From the NCBI GenBank assembly GCA_965207035.1, contig OZ242259.1:3117329-3181328 (forward strand): a stretch of 64,000 bases of DNA. Reading direction: 5' to 3'. Both the position numbers and the translations under genes were made by a program. The notes under the pieces were generated by a model that was not told the origin of the DNA, did no database searches, and saw only the letters and a list, made by a program, of their open reading frames with translations. Below are positions 12,314 to 64,000 of this stretch, in pieces. The stretch is from Bryobacterales bacterium (GTDB taxonomy: Bacteria; Acidobacteriota; Terriglobia; Bryobacterales; UBA6623). Each line of letters starts with the position of its first letter. The first letter of the stretch is position 1.

Positions 12314-14794
12314 ATGCTGATCGAGGAACAGATCCATGCACGTCAGGAACGTGCGAAAGAGGCCGTCAAGCGCATCCTCTCCAGGCCAAAGGGCAAGCCC
12401 TTCGGCGATTATCATCTGCTTTCCACCAGCGGGCAGGAGTACCGGGTGGCGATGCGCGGCCCTGGCCTGTTCGACAACTATTGCTCCTGCCCTGACTTCT
12501 CCCGCAACACGCTGGGGACGTGCAAGCACATCGAGAGCATCCTGGAGCGGCTGCGCAAACGCTACCGCTCCCAGTTGGAGCGCAGGCGATACGAGCGAGA
12601 GAGGGCATCGCTGTCCCTGCTGTACGGCGAGAGCCTTGATGTGCAGTTGAAGCTTCCGGGAACCCCGGAGCCCTCGCTCAAATCCGTCGCGGCCGAGTAC
12701 TTCGACAGTTCGGGAGTCCTGATGCGCGGGAAATACGCCCAATTCGGGACTGTCCTGGGAGAGTTGCGCCGAGCCGACAGCGCTGCCGTGGTGTACAGCG
12801 ACGTCCTCGACCATGTGGACCGCGTCAACGAACTCGACGAAGGTCTCGCTTGGGAGCGGGAGCAATTGAAGAAGATCGAGGATGGCAAGCGGATCCTGCG
12901 CGGCTTGGTCAAGGTTTCGCTGTTCCCTTACCAGCTGCGGGGCGTCCTGTTCGCGGCGAGCCGGGGCCGCGTCGTGCTGGCCGATGACATGGGGCTGGGC
13001 AAGACCGTCCAAGCCATCGCCGCAGCCACGCTCCTGAAACGGCGCAGCGGCATTGAGCGGGTACTGGTGATCTCGCCCGCTTCCGTGAAGTACCAGTGGA
13101 GAACCGAGATCGAACGTTTCAGCGATCTGTCCGTACAGGTTATTGACGGCGACAAGCTACGCAGGAAGAAGAGATACGCAAGCCCGAAGTTCTTCAATTT
13201 GATTAACTACGAGCTCGTCCGGTGGGACATTGAGGAGCTACGGGCGCTGGGTGCCGACCTGATCATCCTCGACGAGGCGCAGCGCATCCGGAACTGGGCC
13301 ACCAAGACGGCACGCACTGTCAAGCAGTTGAAGAGCCGCTATGCTTTCGTGCTCACCGGAACCCCTCTCGAGAACAAGATCGAAGAACTGTATTCGGTCG
13401 TCGAGTTCGTGGACGGACGCGTGCTGGGGCCTGCCTTCCGCTTCCTGCACGAGCATGTCGAGACGAGCGACACCGGAAAGCTGCTTGGCTACCGGGGATT
13501 GAAGCGGATTCACGAGCAGCTGAAGCCGATTCTGTTGCGTCGAAAGCGCGACGAGGTTCTCAAGCAACTCCCGGAGCGAACCGACCAGACGTTCAGAGTG
13601 CCGTTGACCAAGCAGCAGGCTGAGCCGTACTGGGAGCAGAACGAGATCCTGGGCCGGCTCATGCACAAGTGGAAGCGGCAGGGATGGCTCTCGGAAGTCG
13701 ATTTCCGACGGATCACCTGCTGTCTGCAAAACATGCGCATGCTATGCAATTCGACGTTCCTTTTCGACAAGGAGACCAACCACTCCCCGAAGCTGGACGA
13801 GTTCAGCGAGATCATCCGCGAACTCGCCATCGAGGAAGGGAGAAAGACCGTTGTCTTCAGCGAGTACGAGCGAATGACCCGCTTGGCAGCCAAGGAACTG
13901 ACAAAGCTCGGGATTGAATTCGTGTCGTTGCACGGGGGCGTCCCCACACCCAAGCGGGGCGAGCTGATGGACCGTTTCCGCACGGACCCAAATTGCAGGG
14001 TGTTCCTCTCCACCGATGCAGGCGGCGTCGGGCTGAACCTGCAGTCCGCATCGGCGGTGATCAACTTCGAGCCCCCGTGGAATCCGGCGCGGCTGGAGCA
14101 GCGCATCGGGCGGGTCCACCGCATGGGACAAACCAATCCGGTCCAAGTGATTCACATGCTCACCGAGGACAGCATTGAAGAACGGGTCTGGGAAACGATG
14201 CAACTCAAGAAGGCGCTCTTCTCTGGTCTCTTCGATGCAACTGCCGACGAGGTCAGCTTCGAGAATCTCGGTCGCTCGACCATGCTCAAGGTCGTCGAGG
14301 AGATTATGGACGACGTCCCGGTGACCGCGACCGACACCGAAACAGAATCGGAGCCCGGTCCAGATGCGCCAATCGAAGCCTCTGAAATCGAGGACGACCG
14401 AGCAGGGGCACACGCTACAACCGAACAGGTTCCGCCCGGGGAGACTCGTCCAGCCACGACTACCGGGGACACGCGCCCACCGGCGGCCGAGCCGAGCCCG
14501 TCGGGCCCGTCGCCGGCTTCTGACATGGAAACGGCCGTGGCAGGGCTCTTTGAGGCGGGAGTGAGATTCATGGAGGCGTTTGCCAGTGCGCCGGTCCCAG
14601 CTGCCGGGCAGTCGGGGCGACAGGTTCCGGAGGAGATGCCGCCCCGGGGGAATGGACTCTTGGCAGGCCTGGTTCAGACTGACCCGGAAACAAGCCGACG
14701 GGTGATGGCCATCCCCTTGCCTGAGGGCATGGATGCGGCACGGATCGAGCACGCGGTGGGTGGCCTTCTGCGGAAGCTCTCTGGCACATCCTAA
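12314..14794 (+). CDS. SWIM zinc finger + SNF2-family (DEAD/DEAH) helicase
   Basis: CSCPDF...CKH SWIM motif; LADDMGLGKT; ILDEAQRIRN; LTGTPLEN; STDAGGVGLNLQ; QRIGRVHRMGQ. Confidence 0.92.
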   Translation: MLIEEQIHARQERAKEAVKRILSRPKGKPFGDYHLLSTSGQEYRVAMRGPGLFDNYCSCPDFSRNTLGTCKHIESILERLRKRYRSQLERRRYERERASLSLLYGESLDVQLKLPGTPEPSLKSVAAEYFDSSGVLMRGKYAQFGTVLGELRRADSAAVVYSDVLDHVDRVNELDEGLAWEREQLKKIEDGKRILRGLVKVSLFPYQLRGVLFAASRGRVVLADDMGLGKTVQAIAAATLLKRRSGIERVLVISPASVKYQWRTEIERFSDLSVQVIDGDKLRRKKRYASPKFFNLINYELVRWDIEELRALGADLIILDEAQRIRNWATKTARTVKQLKSRYAFVLTGTPLENKIEELYSVVEFVDGRVLGPAFRFLHEHVETSDTGKLLGYRGLKRIHEQLKPILLRRKRDEVLKQLPERTDQTFRVPLTKQQAEPYWEQNEILGRLMHKWKRQGWLSEVDFRRITCCLQNMRMLCNSTFLFDKETNHSPKLDEFSEIIRELAIEEGRKTVVFSEYERMTRLAAKELTKLGIEFVSLHGGVPTPKRGELMDRFRTDPNCRVFLSTDAGGVGLNLQSASAVINFEPPWNPARLEQRIGRVHRMGQTNPVQVIHMLTEDSIEERVWETMQLKKALFSGLFDATADEVSFENLGRSTMLKVVEEIMDDVPVTATDTETESEPGPDAPIEASEIEDDRAGAHATTEQVPPGETRPATTTGDTRPPAAEPSPSGPSPASDMETAVAGLFEAGVRFMEAFASAPVPAAGQSGRQVPEEMPPRGNGLLAGLVQTDPETSRRVMAIPLPEGMDAARIEHAVGGLLRKLSGTS

Positions 14795-38184: not shown

Positions 38185-38312
38185 GCGGACAGGTTAGCTC
38201 ACCCGTACTGATAACGGGGCTAACACGCATGGTAGTCCTGCGGAACCAAGAAAGAAGCCGCGCCCCGAGGAATGAAGATTCCGCTGGCTGCGATAGAAGT
38301 TTCTCTCGACCC

Positions 38313-40184
38313 TTAAGATTCAATCCTCGACTTCACAAACATCTCGGTCTCCTTGTCCATGAAGTGCACGAAGCAGCCCTTTAGACCACGCGACAGCAGC
38401 ACCCGGTAAGAGTTCTTGACAAGGTCTACAAAGGTCTTTCTTGACCGTCGCACGACGGTGTCGTATGACGCTTCCGGATACCCTCCCCAGCTCTGGCTGT
38501 CGAAGCTGTAGCGCAGATCCGGCCCGAATATCACGCCGACATAGTCGAATTCGAATCCCTGAGCAGTGTAAATACAGCCGATCTGCTCTATCCCGCAAGG
38601 GTCATATGCCCAGACGGATGCTTTCGGAATGCCCTTCGCCAGTCGTCCGCTGTCCGGCTTTGCGTTCCAGGGTCGAAGATACTCCCCGATCACGACATCC
38701 TCGACAAGCGTCCCGTCATGATTCGGCTTAGACCATGGCCAACAGAATCCTGCGGTCATTCGTGCTGAATGCCCTTCAGTGGCTTTCTGCCGGATTGCGG
38801 TCTCAAGCTCCTCGGCCGACCCGAAGATCCGAAAATCGAAGGCGTCCGAAGAATCCCAAAGGACATTTGCCGTCCGAGCGATCCCGAGGGTGTTGTTGAC
38901 CCAGTTCACGAATCCATCGGACCCGGCGCAACGGAACTGGGCCTGGAGCTCAAAATCGAGAGTCTTGCACCCTCGCTCCTTTGCAGCGCGGACAAGCAGG
39001 TCAGCCGATCCGACCTCGTTTGGGCGCACTACCTGTTTGTCGTCCACAAAACACACAAGTACTTGCGAGGCATCCATTAGTTCATCCACTTGACGGCGAG
39101 AAGATTTCTTGGCCTTTGGGGTGAACCGGTGATTGCTGGTTTCACGGATCCGGTGAGCCTCGTCACAGATCAGGACATCCACGACGGGCGAGTCGACCGC
39201 CATGTAGCTATTGAAGTACTTGAACTGGATGCCCCCGCGCGATCCGATGATCGTGCGCAGAGTCTCTGTAAAGGCTTTGGAGCCCGTAGCGTACTGCGCG
39301 TTGACACCCTGCAGAAGCAAGTCGCTCATCAAATTGAGGGCAATGACCGACTTACCCGTTCCCGGCCCCCCTCGCACGACCAGCACCGTTTTCTTGCGGT
39401 CATGGAATCCCTTCCTAGCGATCGCCAAGACCTTCTCGTAAACAACTTGCTGTTCATCGAGAAGCACATAGGACGGTAGGCCCTTGATGACTTGTCCCAC
39501 ATGATCCATGAGCTTCTTGCTCGGCCGGTACTGGCTCTGCTCGACCCGTTCCAGAACATCCAGACCCTCGCCGATCTCAAGCCGTCGCCTCAAATAGTTG
39601 GCCAGCCGGTCCACATCGTCCGCTGTGAATGCCGGGAAACGCTCGACAATTCTGCGGTATTTCTCGGCGAATAGCGCATCGCCCGCCTCGGCGTAGTAGT
39701 TATGAAGATAGGCGCAGGAGCCAAGACGAATGGGGGCGGGACCGTCGTAGAACGCCGTGTGGGCATCCTCCAAGTACCGCTGATATTGCCCGACCTGCGC
39801 GGACGGGTGTAGCACGTCGCGCTCGGCGCCGCCGACCCAGGTCGATACTAGGTTCTCGCCGTCCGACTGCTGACACTTACTCCACTGCTTGAGCTCAACG
39901 ATGACGGCGTTGTCCTCTTGCTTGCCATCCCGTCCGCAGACCAGACAATCGAGACGCCTGGACGTCAACGGAAGCTGGTACTCCAATGCAACCCCGTGGT
40001 CCATCAGCTCTGCAAGCTGGAACACGTGAGCCATGGCGCTGAGCGAGGCACGCCAGGAATTCACCTCAGCCGGGGAGGGTTTGAAACGGTAGTGGTTGAA
40101 GAACGAATCCTTCAGCTTTTCTGAAATCTGGTTCCGCGCGGTGTCGGCGACGAACTGCTTGGAACTGCCGGAGTAGAGGCGCAT
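38313..40184 (-). CDS. DUF2075 (Schlafen group 3-type helicase) protein with N-terminal PD-(D/E)XK-like nuclease domain
   Basis: LEYQLP...RRLDCLV...VIVELKQWS nuclease-like motif; Walker A GGPGTGKS; Walker B LICDEAH; QFRC.GSDG; GCIYTAQGFEFDYVGVI; YRVLLSRG.KG. Confidence 0.9.
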   Translation of the reverse strand: MRLYSGSSKQFVADTARNQISEKLKDSFFNHYRFKPSPAEVNSWRASLSAMAHVFQLAELMDHGVALEYQLPLTSRRLDCLVCGRDGKQEDNAVIVELKQWSKCQQSDGENLVSTWVGGAERDVLHPSAQVGQYQRYLEDAHTAFYDGPAPIRLGSCAYLHNYYAEAGDALFAEKYRRIVERFPAFTADDVDRLANYLRRRLEIGEGLDVLERVEQSQYRPSKKLMDHVGQVIKGLPSYVLLDEQQVVYEKVLAIARKGFHDRKKTVLVVRGGPGTGKSVIALNLMSDLLLQGVNAQYATGSKAFTETLRTIIGSRGGIQFKYFNSYMAVDSPVVDVLICDEAHRIRETSNHRFTPKAKKSSRRQVDELMDASQVLVCFVDDKQVVRPNEVGSADLLVRAAKERGCKTLDFELQAQFRCAGSDGFVNWVNNTLGIARTANVLWDSSDAFDFRIFGSAEELETAIRQKATEGHSARMTAGFCWPWSKPNHDGTLVEDVVIGEYLRPWNAKPDSGRLAKGIPKASVWAYDPCGIEQIGCIYTAQGFEFDYVGVIFGPDLRYSFDSQSWGGYPEASYDTVVRRSRKTFVDLVKNSYRVLLSRGLKGCFVHFMDKETEMFVKSRIES

Positions 40185-40186
40185 GG

Positions 40187-40552
40187 CTAGAGTTCGGAAT
40201 ACTTTCGGTTCGATCCACGAGCTTTGTCCACCGGATAGCGTTCAGCGTTCTTGGCCATCTTCCGTTCGAAGGCAGCCCCGAGATCGATATTGAAGCGGTC
40301 GGACAGTCGAAGCACGAAAAAAAGCACGTCCGCCACCTCGTTCTCGATCCGCTCACGACTCTCAGGATTGTCGAGGGATCGTAGGCAGTCCTCGTCCGAC
40401 AGGAATCGAAATCGCTCGAGCAATTCTGCTGCTTCGGTGACAATCCCGACAGCAAGGTCCTTGGGACCGTGGAACTGGTCCCAATCCCGCTCTTCACAAA
40501 AGCGTCGGACGGCGAGCGATAGAGAGTCCAGATTGGTGCTAGCGTCGCTCAT
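40187..40552 (-). CDS. MazG-like nucleotide pyrophosphohydrolase (dCTPase/DCTPP1-like)
   Basis: ERDWDQFHGPKDLAVGIVTEAAELLERF...EVADVLFF...KMAKNAERYP; 2 bp upstream of the DUF2075 start. Confidence 0.93.
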   Translation of the reverse strand: MSDASTNLDSLSLAVRRFCEERDWDQFHGPKDLAVGIVTEAAELLERFRFLSDEDCLRSLDNPESRERIENEVADVLFFVLRLSDRFNIDLGAAFERKMAKNAERYPVDKARGSNRKYSEL

Positions 40553-40961
40553 CCATTGAATGCCGGCCCGCGTTACCACCAGCAACAGATCGTCCCTGCA
40601 TAATACCCGAGAACATCGGAAACGCAGGCTGTTCGGTCGCTCTTCTGCTCGGCTATTCCCCTGCGATGGATGATGGACGATGCTTCTTCAGGTCTTCGTA
40701 ACAAAGTGGATTCATATTTAGTTGTAGCTTCCAAATCAGAAAAAGGACGCTCGCACAAGCGCAATTGGTTCAGCCTGGGCCTTGGGCGATATCGAGCGCC
40801 CGCTCGGCGAGTGAGGCGAAGGGCATTCCGGCGCCATCGGCCCGTGCCAGTCTCGGCCCTTCGGTAGCGCTGTGGTGAACTGAGCATCGTGAGCGATCTC
40901 ATTGGGGCCGTCCGCCACGATTCCGGGTAGATCCAGTCCTAGCGTGGGCTAGAATCGGGCG

Positions 40962-45615: not shown

Positions 45616-48600
45616 GTGGTGATCGCCGGACCGAACGAAGCCGTGAAGAAGCACATCGCCCGGCCTGAAATTGAGACGTGCGCGGTCGTCTCTGGCCTAC
45701 CAGCAGTGGAGTACACACATACAACGGTTCACACGGAACTGGAGGCGGGCGTACGGGTGCGGCTCAAACACAACCCTGGACGCATCGGTGTCGTGACGGG
45801 CCGGATCCGCAAATACGGCGGCCTCAGGAATTGGCAGATCTCGTTTCCTGAAGGTGTGCAATACGCTCCTGAGGACCAACTCGAGTTGGTGGGCGAAGGT
45901 GGGGACGACCCACTCGACCTCCTAGACAGAGGCAGGCTCGCGGATGGAGTCGTTCTACGCCGGACGATCACCCACGCGCGTCTGACCGGCCGGCTCGCCG
46001 ACGTCATCTACAGCATGGACACGACCGGGACGGATTTCTACGCCCATCAGTTCAAGCCGGTTGTGAGTCTCATGAACTCTGCTGGCCGGGGACTCCTGAT
46101 TGCTGACGAAGTCGGTCTCGGAAAGACCATTGAGGCGGGTCTGATCTGGACGGAGCTTCGGACTCGCTACGATTTCCGGCGACTCCTCGTCCTCTGCCCA
46201 GCCGTCCTTCGCGAGAAGTGGCAGCGAGAACTCCACAAGCGCTTTGGAGTCGACGCCGAAATCATGGACGCGCGCCGGACGCTGACGCAACTCCGCCTGG
46301 CTCAAGAACAGAGATACACTGCCAGCTTCGCAATCATTGCCAGTCTGCAGGGACTGCGCCCAAACAGAGGCTGGGACGAACGGGACCCGGAGAATTCGGG
46401 CGCCTCATCCAGACTCGCGCAGTTCCTCGAGGACCGGAGCGAGGACGACCCGCTCGTGGATCTTTGCGTTATCGACGAAGCGCACTACTTGAGGAACCGG
46501 GAGACAATGACCGCCTCCCTCGGTCGCCTCGCCAGGTCTGTTTCCGACTTTATCCTGCTTCTTTCGGCAACGCCCATCCACCTGAGGAGTGAGGATCTCT
46601 ATGTCCTCCTCAACCTGGTTGACGAGGACACGTTCAATCGCCCGCAAGCGTTCGACGACATCCTCAGGGCCAACAAGCCCCTCGTTCGTGCCCGAGATCT
46701 CGCTCTGAGCAGTTCCAGGATTGCGGATGCCGCGACAAGTTTGCGGCAGGAACTCGTCCAAGCATCGAAGAATCCACTGCTTTCCGGTAGTGAGCAACTA
46801 CGAGCGTTGATCAACGAAGAAGTTTGGCGAAGCGACCTGAGCCGAGTCAGTGTTGTCGCACGATTGGCTGAGCGCTTGGAGAGGGTGAACCTCCTTGGCC
46901 ATGTCGTGACCCGGACCCGCAAACGGGATGTCGAGGAGCGCCGTGTCATTCGGGATGTGAAGGCTGCATTCGTGAAGCTCACTCCAGTTGAGCGGGCGTT
47001 CTACGAAAGCGTTACGGCCACGGTACGTGACTATTGTATGGTGCACGATGCCCATGAGGGGTTCCTGCAGGTAACCCCGCAGCGCCAAATGAGCAGCTCA
47101 ATGCCTGCGGCTCTCGCGTCTTGGCTGCACGGAGAAACGATTGACGGGGAGGACCCGGACGATGATGAGCGTCCCCTTCGGGCCGAGCTGTTCAGACGAG
47201 CTCGGAAATTGGGGGATCTCACGGAGTTGCGGCGACACGACAGCAAGTACGAGAAGCTTCAAATGAGCCTGCAATCGCTGCTCAGTAAGGATCGGAGGGA
47301 GAAAGTGGTCGTCTTCTCGTACTTCCGTGCGACTCTCCGGTACCTGTCCGAACGACTGGAACGGGACAGCATCCGCAGCATCGTCCTTCACGGCGGGACG
47401 GCAGACAAGGACGGGACCGTGCTGGAGTTCTGCAATTCGCACGACCACCGAGTCCTGCTTTCGTCCGAAGTCGGCAGCGAAGGAATCGACCTGCAGTTCG
47501 CCCGGATCGTCATCAATTACGACCTTCCATGGAACCCCATGCGCGTGGAGCAGCGCATCGGTCGCATCGACCGACTCGGGCAACGCGCCGAGAAGATTCA
47601 TGTCCTCAACCTGCTCTATGACGACACGATCGACTCACGAATATATAAGCGACTGTTCATGCGCTTGGGGATCTTCGAGGGTGTACTCGGAAGTCTTGAG
47701 CCGGTACTGGGTGACACAATCCAAAAACTGGAGACGCACCTCTTCAGTAGGAATCTCACTCCAGAGCAGGAAGAGGAGCGGATCGAGCAGACGGGTTTAG
47801 CCCTCGAGCAACGTCGGCGAATGGAAGACAAGCTCGAAGCCGAGGCTACGAGCCTGACTGCGTATGGCGACTACATCCTGAATCAAGTCAAGGCCGCTCG
47901 CGACCTCAAACGATCGATCTCCGCTCGCGACATCTGTTCGTACATTATCGATTTCATGACCATGCACTACCGCGGCACCGAGTTTCGGGAGGTCGCGAAT
48001 GATCCGATGCGATTCCAAGTGAATCTCTCGATCGAAGCACGACACGACCTCAATGAGTACCTCAGAGAGCAGCGGCTACAAGGATCAACTAGGCTCGTAA
48101 GGGACACCATTGGATTGGTACCGTGTCGATTCGAGAATACCGCCGTCCCCGACCTCAATGGCCGCGAGGAAGTCATTAGCCAGTTCCACCCGTTAGTCCG
48201 GTTTGTCGGCAAGCGCCTGAGTGAGCCCGATCTGCAGAGTCGTCCGGCGGTCGCAGTTCGATTGCCCGCGCAAGGATCGACTTCAGAGTTAGACCCGGGG
48301 CGTTACGCGTTCTCCGTACAGCGCTGGTCCGTACAGGGACTGCGGGACATGGAGCGCCTATACTATGCGGCGTCAGCACTCGAACCGAGTCCCGACGGAC
48401 TCCAGGCAGAGCTCGCGGAACATTTGATCGTAACCGCCGCGAAAGACGGAGAGGCATGGTTGGGTGCACACCGAGCGGTCGATCTGCTGCATGTCGTCGG
48501 GACTGTCGAAGAATGCTGTATCGCGCCTTCCGACAAAGAATTTGAGAGCTATATCGCCGATCGGAAGGCCGAGAACAACGACAGGGCGAGGATTCAGGGG

Positions 48601-48867
48601 AGCATGCTCGATGATCAATATCGTACACAGCTAGGTAGATTAGAGGCAGTGCTCCAGCGCCACCAGAATCTGGGCCGAGACCGACTGGTCAAGGCAACTA
48701 GAGGGCGGCTCCGGGCTCTAGACAGGCGCGTAGAAAGGCGCCGTAAGGAGATCGACGAGCGCGCGAGGCTTCAGTACTCCAGCGAAGTCGTGTGCGTCGG
48801 GATCATTGAAGTAGAGGAATGCCCGCGAGATTCCTGTGGCCGCAAGACTGAAAAGGAGGTGTTGTGA
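45616..48867 (+). CDS. SNF2/RapA-like helicase (about 1080 aa) with N-terminal SH3/Tudor-like domain and C-terminal coiled coil
   Basis: LLIADEVGLGKTIEAGLI, VIDEAHYLRN, LLSATPI, LSSEVGSEGIDLQF, DLPWNPMRVEQRIGRIDRLGQ. Start uncertain. Confidence 0.92.
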   Translation: MVIAGPNEAVKKHIARPEIETCAVVSGLPAVEYTHTTVHTELEAGVRVRLKHNPGRIGVVTGRIRKYGGLRNWQISFPEGVQYAPEDQLELVGEGGDDPLDLLDRGRLADGVVLRRTITHARLTGRLADVIYSMDTTGTDFYAHQFKPVVSLMNSAGRGLLIADEVGLGKTIEAGLIWTELRTRYDFRRLLVLCPAVLREKWQRELHKRFGVDAEIMDARRTLTQLRLAQEQRYTASFAIIASLQGLRPNRGWDERDPENSGASSRLAQFLEDRSEDDPLVDLCVIDEAHYLRNRETMTASLGRLARSVSDFILLLSATPIHLRSEDLYVLLNLVDEDTFNRPQAFDDILRANKPLVRARDLALSSSRIADAATSLRQELVQASKNPLLSGSEQLRALINEEVWRSDLSRVSVVARLAERLERVNLLGHVVTRTRKRDVEERRVIRDVKAAFVKLTPVERAFYESVTATVRDYCMVHDAHEGFLQVTPQRQMSSSMPAALASWLHGETIDGEDPDDDERPLRAELFRRARKLGDLTELRRHDSKYEKLQMSLQSLLSKDRREKVVVFSYFRATLRYLSERLERDSIRSIVLHGGTADKDGTVLEFCNSHDHRVLLSSEVGSEGIDLQFARIVINYDLPWNPMRVEQRIGRIDRLGQRAEKIHVLNLLYDDTIDSRIYKRLFMRLGIFEGVLGSLEPVLGDTIQKLETHLFSRNLTPEQEEERIEQTGLALEQRRRMEDKLEAEATSLTAYGDYILNQVKAARDLKRSISARDICSYIIDFMTMHYRGTEFREVANDPMRFQVNLSIEARHDLNEYLREQRLQGSTRLVRDTIGLVPCRFENTAVPDLNGREEVISQFHPLVRFVGKRLSEPDLQSRPAVAVRLPAQGSTSELDPGRYAFSVQRWSVQGLRDMERLYYAASALEPSPDGLQAELAEHLIVTAAKDGEAWLGAHRAVDLLHVVGTVEECCIAPSDKEFESYIADRKAENNDRARIQGSMLDDQYRTQLGRLEAVLQRHQNLGRDRLVKATRGRLRALDRRVERRRKEIDERARLQYSSEVVCVGIIEVEECPRDSCGRKTEKEVL

Positions 48868-50546
48868 CCTGTCGCGGCATCATTCAGTGGGTCCGTCGCT
48901 GTCTTGGCCTTGAAGGGAGACATCAGCCGGCTCCACCGTCTCGTGGCACAGATCAGTACCCGCCGCCGGCAAGCACTGCAGAGTCTCGACAGAAGGTCAA
49001 GAAGCCGAGTGAGCGTGAGTTGGAAGTCGTCCAGTCTTCGTCGGGAATGGGAATGCCACCTCCTGGCAACAATCAAGAACCAACCCAAGCCGGTGCGGCC
49101 GGGGTTGATGATCATATTCAGACTGCTAGAACACAGTTCTCAGGTCACTCGAGGGAGACGACAGACCTCGTTATTGGGCTCGATTTCGGCACATTGAGCA
49201 CAAGAGTTATTATTCGAAGTCCGTACGTGGGCGACGGACGCGCTGTGCCCGTGGTATGGCAGGTGCGGGCCGAGATGCCGCCTCATTTCTTGCCGGTCGC
49301 TCTCCTCGAAGGCCCGAACGGCACACTCACCCTGACGTCAGACTGGACGGACCGAGAAGCAGGCAATCTCAAGACCGATCTCATGGACAGGCCCGACGAT
49401 GCCACCGTGCGTGCGCGCGCCGCAGCGTACCTAAGTTTGGTGCTCCGCGAAGCCAGATGTTACGTGCTCGACACGCAGGCTGAAGCATACGGCTCGTATC
49501 GTATCCGATGGGCTGTCCACTTGGGAATACCCTCCGCCGGATACGACGACGACGAAATCAAGAGGGCATTCCTGTCGGTCGCGCGCACCGCATGGATGCT
49601 ATCGAGGCGCTCAGAACCTATGACTCTAGACGCAGCGATGATGGAGCTAGAGGCAGAGGGTCACGCCAAAGCGATCGAGGCGGACCCAGACGTGACCGGT
49701 ATCGAAGTAGTACCAGAGATCGCAGCGCTAGTCGTGGGCTATGCGCGATCACGCCGTCGCAAAGAGGGGCTACACATGATTATGGATATTGGGGCTTCGA
49801 CCATCGATATCTGCGGTTTTGGCCTTGAGGGTCGGGACGGAGATGACCAATACTTCTTGTATACGGCGCTCGTGAGGCGGTTCGGGATACGCGAACTGCA
49901 TCACCGTCGGATGGATGCGATCAGGAATGCGAATCTGGAGGATTCGGTGCGCGTACCTGCATCACTGGATCCGTTCTCTGAAGTACCGGCGGTTGGTAGC
50001 GATTATGTGGAGGCTCCAGCGGATCGGTTGCGCACGGAGTTGGATTCCCTCGACTGCTCCTACTCAGCGGCCTGCACTCAAGCACTGATGATCGTGCTCA
50101 AAGATCTAAAGACGTGCCGGGACCCGCGGTCGCTGGCATGGAAGACTGGCCTCCCTCTCTTCAAGACTGGTGGCGGCAGTCGACATCGACTCATCACTCG
50201 TGCAGTGCAGGAGGCAAACTTCCGCCTAACCACCTTGTCCGGTGCAGCGAGAATTGACGTGCAGACCCTGCCAACTTTGGAGACATTGGCGCTAGCCCGA
50301 AATCGCTCAAGAGATTTGTCGGCAGAAAATGGCGGCGAGGATGGATCTGGACAACCACGAGCGGAATCGTCAACAGATGCCGATTGGGAAGATTGGGACG
50401 CTCTGGCAGAGCGGCTTGGAGTGGCTTATGGCCTCAGCTTCGACAGATTCGAGATCGGTGATATCACACCCCCGCGTGAGATCGACAACGTGCCCCCCAT
50501 GCCGCTGGGCAAGCCAACAGAGTACATTTCAAAGGACCACGTTTAG
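48864..50546 (+). CDS. Uncharacterised actin-like/Hsp70-fold (ASKHA) ATPase
   Basis: Phosphate-1 VIGLDFGTLST, connect-1 VVPEIAAL, phosphate-2 IMDIGASTID, adenosine KTGGGSRH, connect-2 RLGVAYGLS. GTGA overlap with the helicase stop and GGAGG RBS. Confidence 0.75.
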   Translation: MTCRGIIQWVRRCLGLEGRHQPAPPSRGTDQYPPPASTAESRQKVKKPSERELEVVQSSSGMGMPPPGNNQEPTQAGAAGVDDHIQTARTQFSGHSRETTDLVIGLDFGTLSTRVIIRSPYVGDGRAVPVVWQVRAEMPPHFLPVALLEGPNGTLTLTSDWTDREAGNLKTDLMDRPDDATVRARAAAYLSLVLREARCYVLDTQAEAYGSYRIRWAVHLGIPSAGYDDDEIKRAFLSVARTAWMLSRRSEPMTLDAAMMELEAEGHAKAIEADPDVTGIEVVPEIAALVVGYARSRRRKEGLHMIMDIGASTIDICGFGLEGRDGDDQYFLYTALVRRFGIRELHHRRMDAIRNANLEDSVRVPASLDPFSEVPAVGSDYVEAPADRLRTELDSLDCSYSAACTQALMIVLKDLKTCRDPRSLAWKTGLPLFKTGGGSRHRLITRAVQEANFRLTTLSGAARIDVQTLPTLETLALARNRSRDLSAENGGEDGSGQPRAESSTDADWEDWDALAERLGVAYGLSFDRFEIGDITPPREIDNVPPMPLGKPTEYISKDHV

Positions 50547-63053: not shown

Positions 63054-63147
<94 letters not shown>

Positions 63148-63349: not shown

Positions 63350-64000
63350 CTAGGAGTCACCGTTCCGCAGAGAATCTGTGGTCTTGAGCCACGTAACAGG
63401 GATCAACGCTTTGTCATCGCGCCATCTCTCGACTATTGCCGCTTGGTACCAATTCTCGATCACGTCGGCATGCTCAGTGACTATGACCTGAAAGCCTGGC
63501 CGTAGCTCATCAACCACATCTCGGATAAGCTGCAAGATCCCGATCACTGCTCGGCGGTCTTTGTCATTGATGTTGCCTTTCAGGCCCACAAGCTCTCGGT
63601 CAGCGGGAAAGTAGGCCTGAGAAAGCTGATCCAAGAAAAGAAATCGAGGTACGGGCCGCGCGTTTCGCACGAACCACACATGTAGAGCCAGATGAGCAAT
63701 GATATGGCAGCAGAGCGCATTCGCGGCACTGCCCATTCGGCTCATAGGAATGGGGCCGGTTTCGATGTCCGCCACGACCTGTAGTCGACGCACATCCAAT
63801 CGAAAAGGGTTCCCCCCAAACTCATGCTCAAGCCTGCCCGCCCATTCCGTGAGGCGATTTCCGACTATTGAGAGGATGGAATCCAAGCGCTCCTGAAGTC
63901 CCTCGTCACTGAGCTCGCCCTCAATGCGCTCGATCTCCCTCTGAATCTCGGCGATTTCCTGGCGTAGGTCTGAGCTTTCGTCAAGCTGTGGTAGTGACTC
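63350..64000 (-). CDS. DUF3732 domain SMC-like/ABC ATPase protein, C-terminal part; continues beyond the window
   Basis: Frame is open to 64000 (coiled coil ESLPQLDESSDLRQEIAEIQREIERIE). Motifs MGSAAN..CCHIIAHLALH, PVPRFLFLDQLSQAYFP, FQVIVTEHA, WR..KALIP..W. Confidence 0.88.
   Translation of the reverse strand, partial: ESLPQLDESSDLRQEIAEIQREIERIEGELSDEGLQERLDSILSIVGNRLTEWAGRLEHEFGGNPFRLDVRRLQVVADIETGPIPMSRMGSAANALCCHIIAHLALHVWFVRNARPVPRFLFLDQLSQAYFPADRELVGLKGNINDKDRRAVIGILQLIRDVVDELRPGFQVIVTEHADVIENWYQAAIVERWRDDKALIPVTWLKTTDSLRNGDS

Follow-up and report, generated by a model that had tools for sequence, protein, structure and literature searches.

A horizontally mobile gene pair for a DCTPP1-like pyrophosphohydrolase and a nuclease-like DUF2075 helicase: a candidate anti-phage module in a Bryobacterales bacterium

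Introduction

In Staphylococcus epidermidis, SERP2475 encodes Nhi, a validated single-gene defence in which a PD-(D/E)XK nuclease is joined to a DUF2075 helicase (Bari et al., bioRxiv 10.1101/776245). Millman et al. (2022, bioRxiv 10.1101/2022.05.11.491447) likewise validated an 'Nhi-like' protein, which shares this layout and lacks sequence identity to Nhi. The layout of nuclease and DUF2075 helicase is thus not new in itself, having been validated as a single-gene defence. Here we analyse a gene with this layout that lies directly behind a small MazG-like gene in a stretch of 64,000 nucleotides (the window) from a Bryobacterales bacterium of the Acidobacteriota (GenBank assembly GCA_965207035.1, contig OZ242259.1, positions 3,117,329 to 3,181,328 of the forward strand). 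An initial annotation, made from the sequence alone, had proposed the two genes (38313-40552 of the window) as a candidate anti-phage system and had named no validated system consisting of exactly this pair. A literature search agreed with it on this point, as no publication was found in which MazG was paired with DUF2075 or, in a relevant way, with Schlafen, or in which Nhi was paired with a pyrophosphohydrolase.

The DUF2075 family, PF09848, is now titled 'Schlafen group 3 helicase'; it is counted among the abortive infection (Abi) families in the literature, where DUF2075 genes have also been reported adjoining modification-dependent nucleases. Enzymes that deplete nucleotides, such as dCTP deaminase and dGTPase, are named among defence systems (PMC10121019), and by analogy the nucleotide-pool enzyme of the pair described here would act against phage replication, but it belongs to an unrelated enzyme family and is coupled to a nuclease-helicase. 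The nucleoside triphosphate (NTP) pyrophosphohydrolase (MazG) domain is among the defence domains predicted by DefensePredictor, none of them validated (PMC13092281); DUF2075, Schlafen and Nhi do not occur in the text of that study.

Results and discussion

The two genes are inherited together as one mobile cassette

Both genes lie on the minus strand, with the MazG-like gene first (40187-40552; 121 amino acids counted from its ATG, with an alternative TTG start at 40585) and the DUF2075 gene behind it (38313-40184; 623 amino acids, ATG start). A 2-nt spacer separates the MazG-like stop codon from the DUF2075 start codon (TAG-CC-ATG), which is the distance given by the initial annotation.

Within the genus, the helicase gene was found in 4 of 31 genomes, at a different site each time, and it was absent from all 30 other genomes of the family or order. 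PF12643, the MazG-like family in Pfam, was found within the genus in exactly the same four genomes, always adjoining the helicase gene. The congeneric carriers have just one stretch in common, 38276-40653 of the window, which comprises the two genes with about 100 nt upstream and 37 nt downstream, and beyond which the flanks are unrelated; the cassette is 92% identical to that of locus L001 over this whole stretch, and 81-83% identical to those of L002 and L003, over 38313-40620 and 38320-40580. The pair is one horizontally mobile unit, a horizontally acquired cassette of 2.4 kb. Its immediate neighbours in the window are ribH, nusB and genes for NHL-repeat proteins, a DUF5060 protein and a desaturase, and these identities, together with the finding that only the cassette is common to congeneric carriers, confirm the earlier observation that the pair is inserted among unrelated genes. 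No clean empty site was found among the congeneric genomes, the site is no evident defence hotspot, and inspection of the cassette ends for direct or inverted repeats gave nothing convincing. A phage-borne gene was considered and rejected, since homologues were seen in just 4 phage records out of 50,697.

The two genes are associated across phyla

A protein search returned at least 7999 homologues of the large protein at E ≤ 1e-10, and 80 loci, spread over many bacterial phyla and the archaea at 47-95% identity, came from one scan of species-representative genomes. At 54 of the 80 loci a MazG-like gene adjoins the helicase gene, being upstream of it in 47 and downstream in 7. With refined coordinates, the gap behind an upstream MazG-like gene has a median of 1 nt (n = 45), and at 38 of the 45 loci it lies between a 4-nt overlap and a 3-nt gap, a spacing typical of translational coupling. 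A Mantel test found the pairwise distances between MazG-like proteins to be correlated with those between helicases (r = 0.50; none of 2000 permutations reached this value). Judged from sequence, the pair appears to be a translationally coupled operon and is most likely anti-phage.

The phyla are intermixed in the helicase tree, which indicates extensive horizontal transfer, and loci without a MazG-like gene group together in a small number of clades, a pattern suggestive of secondary loss or replacement. In one MazG-less clade (L004 and L011), a 186-aa gene for an HD_3/YfbR-like 5'-deoxynucleotidase lies directly 3' of the helicase gene (L004:2821-3381; L011:11898-12458), followed by an HNH_2 nuclease gene. 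The presence of an HD/YfbR-like hydrolase in MazG's place suggests that nucleotide hydrolysis is the property required of the partner.

Two pairs of loci have near-identical helicase genes (tree distance 0.02-0.05) yet come from different phyla: L032/L033 from Actinomycetota and Planctomycetota bins of one study, and L064/L068 from Chloroflexota and Spirochaetota. This likeness across phyla reflects either very recent transfer or a binning error.

The small protein is very probably an active DCTPP1-like enzyme

The MazG-like protein matches PF12643 (E 6e-13, 49.3 bits against a cut-off of 27) and aligns over its full length, without gaps, to mouse and human DCTPP1 (dCTP pyrophosphatase 1, or RS21-C6; PDB 2a3q/6sqw, E 5.7e-20; also 7mu5). 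The initial annotation had assigned it to the DCTPP1-type, all-alpha NTP pyrophosphatases by its EAAE and EVAD motifs, and both the kinship and the motifs withstood this comparison: E40 and E43 of the first (40424-40435, minus strand) and E72 and D75 of the second (40328-40339, minus strand) align ungapped with the metal ligands E63, E66, E95 and D98 of the mouse enzyme. These four residues, and with them W24, H28, K98, N102 and Y106, are conserved to 95% or more among 56 homologues. Since the metal ligands of DCTPP1 are intact and conserved, the small protein is very probably an active DCTPP1-like enzyme. W47 of DCTPP1 is likewise conserved, whereas mouse H38 and W73 are replaced by V15 and F50, and the protein described here is the product of a cassette-bound accessory gene in a prokaryote.

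A housekeeping role for the MazG-like gene was rejected for this lineage, as the gene is the sole PF12643 gene of its genome, occurs only where the helicase gene does, and belongs to a family present in 14 of the 401 Acidobacteriota genomes of a phylum scan. Among the other PF12643 genes of these 14 genomes, two adjoin EVE- or HNH_2-like open reading frames (ORFs) and one adjoins aspS. ORFs resembling modified-base readers, in place of DUF2075, are the coupled partners of the MazG-like gene at Acidobacteriota loci L146 (399-1538, minus strand), L149 and L157; one of these ORFs gives a weak match to the UPF0310 protein PH1033 (E 0.059) and another resembles a 311-aa HNH_2 family.

The large protein carries an SF1B helicase core behind a nuclease-like domain

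Amino acids 265-610 of the large protein (38355-39392, minus strand) match the whole of the PF09848 model (DUF2075/SLFN-g3 helicase; E 9e-87, 292 bits). The Walker A motif GGPGTGKS (39348-39371) and motif II DEAH, which lies within the Walker B sequence CDEAHR (39150-39167; D341, E342, H344 and R345), are invariant in 58 sequences, so that the Walker motifs and DUF2075 helicase of the initial annotation both stand. An AlphaFold2 model of the protein (predicted local distance difference test score, pLDDT, 86.4) was matched by Foldseek to the superfamily 1B (SF1B) helicases RecD2 (1e-11), SLFN11 (7zel, 7e-11), Dda, SLFN14, Dna2, Upf1 and nsp13. The protein therefore resembles the group III Schlafens SLFN11 and SLFN14 in fold and in the Pfam family of its helicase, but identity to them is about 11% and its N-terminal domain holds no Schlafen/AlbA-type RNase domain. 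On the combined evidence of sequence and predicted structure, the large protein is an SF1B helicase core behind an N-terminal nuclease-like domain.

This N-terminal domain (amino acids 1-240; 39465-40184, minus strand; model pLDDT 90.6) contains E68, D79 and E97-x-K99; across 58-72 homologues these residues are either invariant or conserved to at least 90%. The putative catalytic motif occupies 39888-39950 on the minus strand, with D79 at 39948-39950 and E97-L-K99 at 39888-39896. In the model the core is predicted to be alpha-beta-beta-beta-alpha-beta, with D79 opening strand 2 and E97 and K99 on strand 3; a D ... (D/E)xK motif on strands 2 and 3 of such a core is the usual arrangement in PD-(D/E)XK enzymes. 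The motif EYQLP...RR.D...VI.ELK of the N-terminal domain is kept in a paralogue from the same genome that is just 21% identical, and the Pfam matches of the domain, all below threshold, belong without exception to the PD-(D/E)XK clan (NERD, PDDEXK_9, HSDR_N_2 and MTES_1575). From its motif and predicted topology, the domain is likely to be a nuclease. The PD-(D/E)XK-like nuclease of the initial annotation thus holds as to its conserved motif and fitting topology, and is unconfirmed as to its fold, as set out with the other contrary evidence below.

Many homologues are longer than the protein of the window. Among 71 full-length homologues, 23 (for example L005, L007, L012, L015, L027 and L028) have a C-terminal extension of about 180 amino acids that matches Peptidase_S24, of the LexA/UmuD type, and in which a GxSM serine motif and a lysine are conserved and an AAAG stretch is present. 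The large protein of the window is the short form, which has no S24 extension.

The pair matches no named defence system in PADLOC

When compared with the 5027 models of PADLOC v2.0, the MazG-like protein matched none of them at E values up to 0.01, and the large protein gave only partial matches to PDC-S41, AbiO and Nhi; in keeping with the initial annotation, no system was named for the pair. The best match of the large protein was to PDC-S41 (PDLC05014), at 56.6 bits over two partial stretches. The AbiO model (PDLC02350) covered amino acids 238-390 only (E 1.2e-11) and the Nhi model (PDLC02372) aligned amino acids 238-418 with its positions 180-329 of 470 (E 1.2e-10), and none of the three matches was full-length. 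On these alignments, the large protein is Nhi-like in layout but is no member of the Nhi, AbiO or PDC-S41 families.

Its likeness to Nhi and the Nhi-like protein lies in a polypeptide of about 600-620 amino acids with an N-terminal nuclease-type domain followed by a PF09848 helicase of the SF1 type, and in its defence contexts. Unlike Nhi, which is not reported to need such a partner, the subfamily described here is normally paired with a DCTPP1-like gene, and many of its members carry the S24 tail. PDC-S41, a single-gene DUF2075 candidate, has the same overall architecture and the same N-terminal E...D...ExK motif, but a true member of that family in the same genome matches the model from end to end (404.5 bits) and has no MazG partner. 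This true PDC-S41 member is the 21% identical paralogue mentioned above; it is encoded about 180 kb from the pair (G000:C1 ~3336.7-3338.6 kb; L118:1432-3321, minus strand; E 1.9e-121).

Neighbourhoods of the pair are rich in defence genes

ORFs within three genes of the pair matched 200 PADLOC families (150 ORFs from 68 loci, E ≤ 1e-10), those in the far flanks, 6.5-10 kb off, matched 130 families (148 ORFs), and random ORFs of the window's genome, called alike, matched 20 families (140 ORFs). There is a clear, roughly ten-fold excess of PADLOC families beside the pair over random ORFs, by a crude measure in which redundant models are counted and the control comes from a single genome; enrichment beside defence genes, which would be expected of the anti-phage system proposed in the initial annotation, was observed. 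Families near the pair included HNH, which was the most frequent with 9 members, SoFic, MADS, PDC-S04, AriA, AbiLi, AbiEii, BrxP, Cas7/Csm3, the PIWI domain of prokaryotic Argonaute (pAgo) and Dsr1, and those in the far flanks included pAgo, PbeC, DndD, SIR2-APAZ and Cas10.

Individual loci gave the same impression. At one, a helix-turn-helix (HTH) gene, the pair and a brxE gene are arranged as HTH-MazG-DUF2075-BrxE among toxin-antitoxin genes, and another, also rich in toxin-antitoxin genes, has HNH_2, a methyltransferase-HNH gene and a TIR/SEFIR gene. On a Hymenobacter plasmid the pair lies alongside restriction-modification genes. On a Priestia plasmid a DUF3578-MazG-DUF2075 arrangement, in which the McrB-N-like DUF3578 gene overlaps the MazG gene, has a restriction endonuclease on one side and a type I system on the other, with a MutT gene nearby. 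ABC-3C systems were also among the contexts of the pair. HNH_2 or HNH nucleases were found at 18 of the 80 loci, and one family of HNH neighbours resembles the EVE-HNH enzyme VcaM4I (PDB 6yex) in its size and in the position of HNH.

Proposed function and rival explanations

The gene structure, the intact catalytic motifs, the co-inheritance, the mobility and the defence-rich context of the pair are direct observations; that the pair is a defence module is, in our judgement, probable. As to how it might work, we lean on balance towards a two-gene module in which an Nhi-type nuclease-helicase would attack phage DNA or replication intermediates and the DCTPP1-like enzyme would hydrolyse dCTP-type nucleotides. 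The large protein would be the Nhi-type effector, a putative metal-dependent nuclease (D79, E97 and K99) joined to an SF1B helicase/ATPase motor, and, to judge from the architecture that it has in common with Nhi, it would unwind and degrade phage replication intermediates or DNA. The small protein would hydrolyse dCTP-type nucleotides to dNMP and pyrophosphate, and may favour 5-modified dCTPs made by the phage, with the outcome that phage replication would be starved or unmodified bases would be forced into phage DNA; it may also keep modified nucleotides from degraded DNA out of the host genome. A specificity of the pair for modified cytosine is more doubtful, and we put it forward only tentatively, the evidence for a link to modified nucleotides being circumstantial: homology to DCTPP1, frequent HNH neighbours, one family of which resembles VcaM4I, a modification-dependent enzyme, and the McrB-N-like DUF3578 gene that overlaps MazG on the Priestia plasmid.

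A more elaborate scheme, which we consider unlikely, would make the pair a two-part immune module against phages whose DNA has modified forms in place of cytosine. By destroying the phage pool of 5-modified dCTP, the DCTPP1-like enzyme would stall replication or deprive the DNA of its protective modification; next, the Schlafen-type nuclease-helicase would load onto the replication intermediates, now stalled or unprotected, and degrade them; and, in the long-form relatives, degradation would be gated by RecA-stimulated self-cleavage of the LexA-type tail. If this scheme were true, the module would be a prokaryotic equivalent of the way in which SLFN11 senses replication stress, with an attack on nucleotide pools added. 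Should the pair prove to defend against phages, it would add a common system that current annotation tools miss, in a helicase family that is very large; it would be the first DCTPP1-type pool-sanitising enzyme wired to a nuclease-helicase effector, and would connect Schlafen-type helicases with modification-dependent restriction and with attack on nucleotide pools.

Several observations weigh against a defence module of this kind, in addition to the crudeness of the enrichment measure. Foldseek comparison of the N-terminal domain with the PDB gave nothing significant (the best match was EndoMS/NucS, E 0.45), the PDB gave no match to the large protein or to its N-terminal domain when searched by sequence and by profile, and no Pfam family rose above threshold on amino acids 1-240. 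Homology to validated defence proteins is remote, in that the matches to the Nhi and AbiO models are confined to the first part of the helicase and the match to PDC-S41 is weak. The MazG-like gene is absent from about one quarter of the homologous loci with adequate flanks, so the helicase can stand alone, and only 4 of the 14 Acidobacteriota genomes with PF12643 have that gene beside DUF2075. In the window itself the immediate neighbours of the cassette are housekeeping or metabolic genes, and the same site in the closest relative holds metabolic, not defence, genes.

The capacity of the helicase gene to occur without MazG would also fit two genes of independent function that travel together, an explanation we regard as improbable. 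The DUF2075 protein would then be a complete Nhi-like single-gene defence, as Nhi and the Nhi-like protein both act as single genes, and the MazG-like protein would serve neighbouring modification-dependent nucleases or be a separate nucleotide-depletion defence, as its adjoining EVE- and HNH_2-like ORFs without DUF2075 in other Acidobacteriota might suggest. The spacing of 38 of the 45 loci, from a 4-nt overlap to a 3-nt gap, speaks for a closer connection, however, as do the co-variation of the two proteins, their strict co-occurrence within the genus, and a cassette in the window that consists of just these two genes. Tight coupling with the small gene first is also what a toxin-antitoxin or abortive-infection pair would have, in which the nuclease-helicase would be a self-damaging toxin that the MazG-like protein restrains, or whose trigger it sets by removing a nucleotide signal, until infection frees the nuclease and the cell dies or is arrested. 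Toxin-antitoxin genes are frequent neighbours, Nhi can slow host growth and may cause collateral damage to host DNA (bioRxiv 10.1101/776245), and the LexA-type S24 tail on many homologues suggests regulated activation. But the small protein keeps all its catalytic residues, unlike a binding antitoxin; a toxin without antitoxin should not be tolerated, yet the helicase lacks MazG at about one quarter of loci; the gene order is reversed at 7 loci; and an HD hydrolase can stand in for MazG, which indicates a catalytic role. We consider this explanation quite improbable.

The same S24/LexA-type tails tie the family to the RecA/SOS signal, and would suit an accessory module for DNA repair or replication stress with no phage role, in which the helicase-nuclease would process stalled forks or damaged DNA and the DCTPP1-like enzyme would clean the dNTP pool. 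DCTPP1 is a pool-sanitising enzyme (PMC7162842), SLFN11, Dna2 and RecD2 are among the structural matches, and the MutT gene on the Priestia plasmid lies near the pair. A repair module would not readily account for a pair found in just 4 of 31 congeneric genomes at a different site each time, nor for the extensive horizontal transfer seen in the intermixed phyla of the helicase tree, and the neighbourhoods abound in genes for restriction, Abi, CRISPR, pAgo and toxin-antitoxin systems, not for repair, so that we hold this explanation to be very improbable. The two-gene defence module remains the reading we prefer.

Local site and other features of the window

The stretch from the NHL-repeat gene to the DUF5060 gene is variable within the genus: the closest relative has a different segment of 8.5 kb there (L097:1824-10373, corresponding to 38207-40879 of the window), with genes for PHP, dienelactone hydrolase, PIN, MFS and sulfatase proteins, and its cassette lies 45 kb off. 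Around the pair in the window, a scan for sigma-70 sites gave none upstream of the MazG gene. A consensus scan placed a terminator-like hairpin on the minus strand at 38254-38266, 47 nt past the helicase stop codon, which is weak evidence as the regional count of such hairpins was not above that expected from shuffled sequence. An Arg-rich ORF of 109 amino acids at 40573-40902 was rejected as a gene, being unconserved in relatives, in which homology stops at 40653.

Further matches to defence families lie elsewhere in the window. A DrmD-like SNF2 gene is located 5 kb from the pair (45616-48867, 1083 amino acids) and matches the PADLOC DrmD model from end to end (E 1.6e-256); it is overlapped by an ORF of 560 amino acids (48864-50546) that has no PADLOC match. 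A helicase of the SNF2 type (12314-14794, 826 amino acids) has strong partial matches to PADLOC ZorD, DpdE and DrmD (E down to 1e-70), and an ORF of 610 amino acids at 51247-53079 matches PADLOC RT-Protease_XI weakly and incompletely, in its protease part (E 2.7e-11). Near the end of the window, an ORF of 178 amino acids on the minus strand (63350-63886), beside a tRNA-Ser gene (63054-63147), matches the C-terminal end of PADLOC LmuB (E 3e-34) and could mark one edge of a Lamassu-type system that continues beyond the window.

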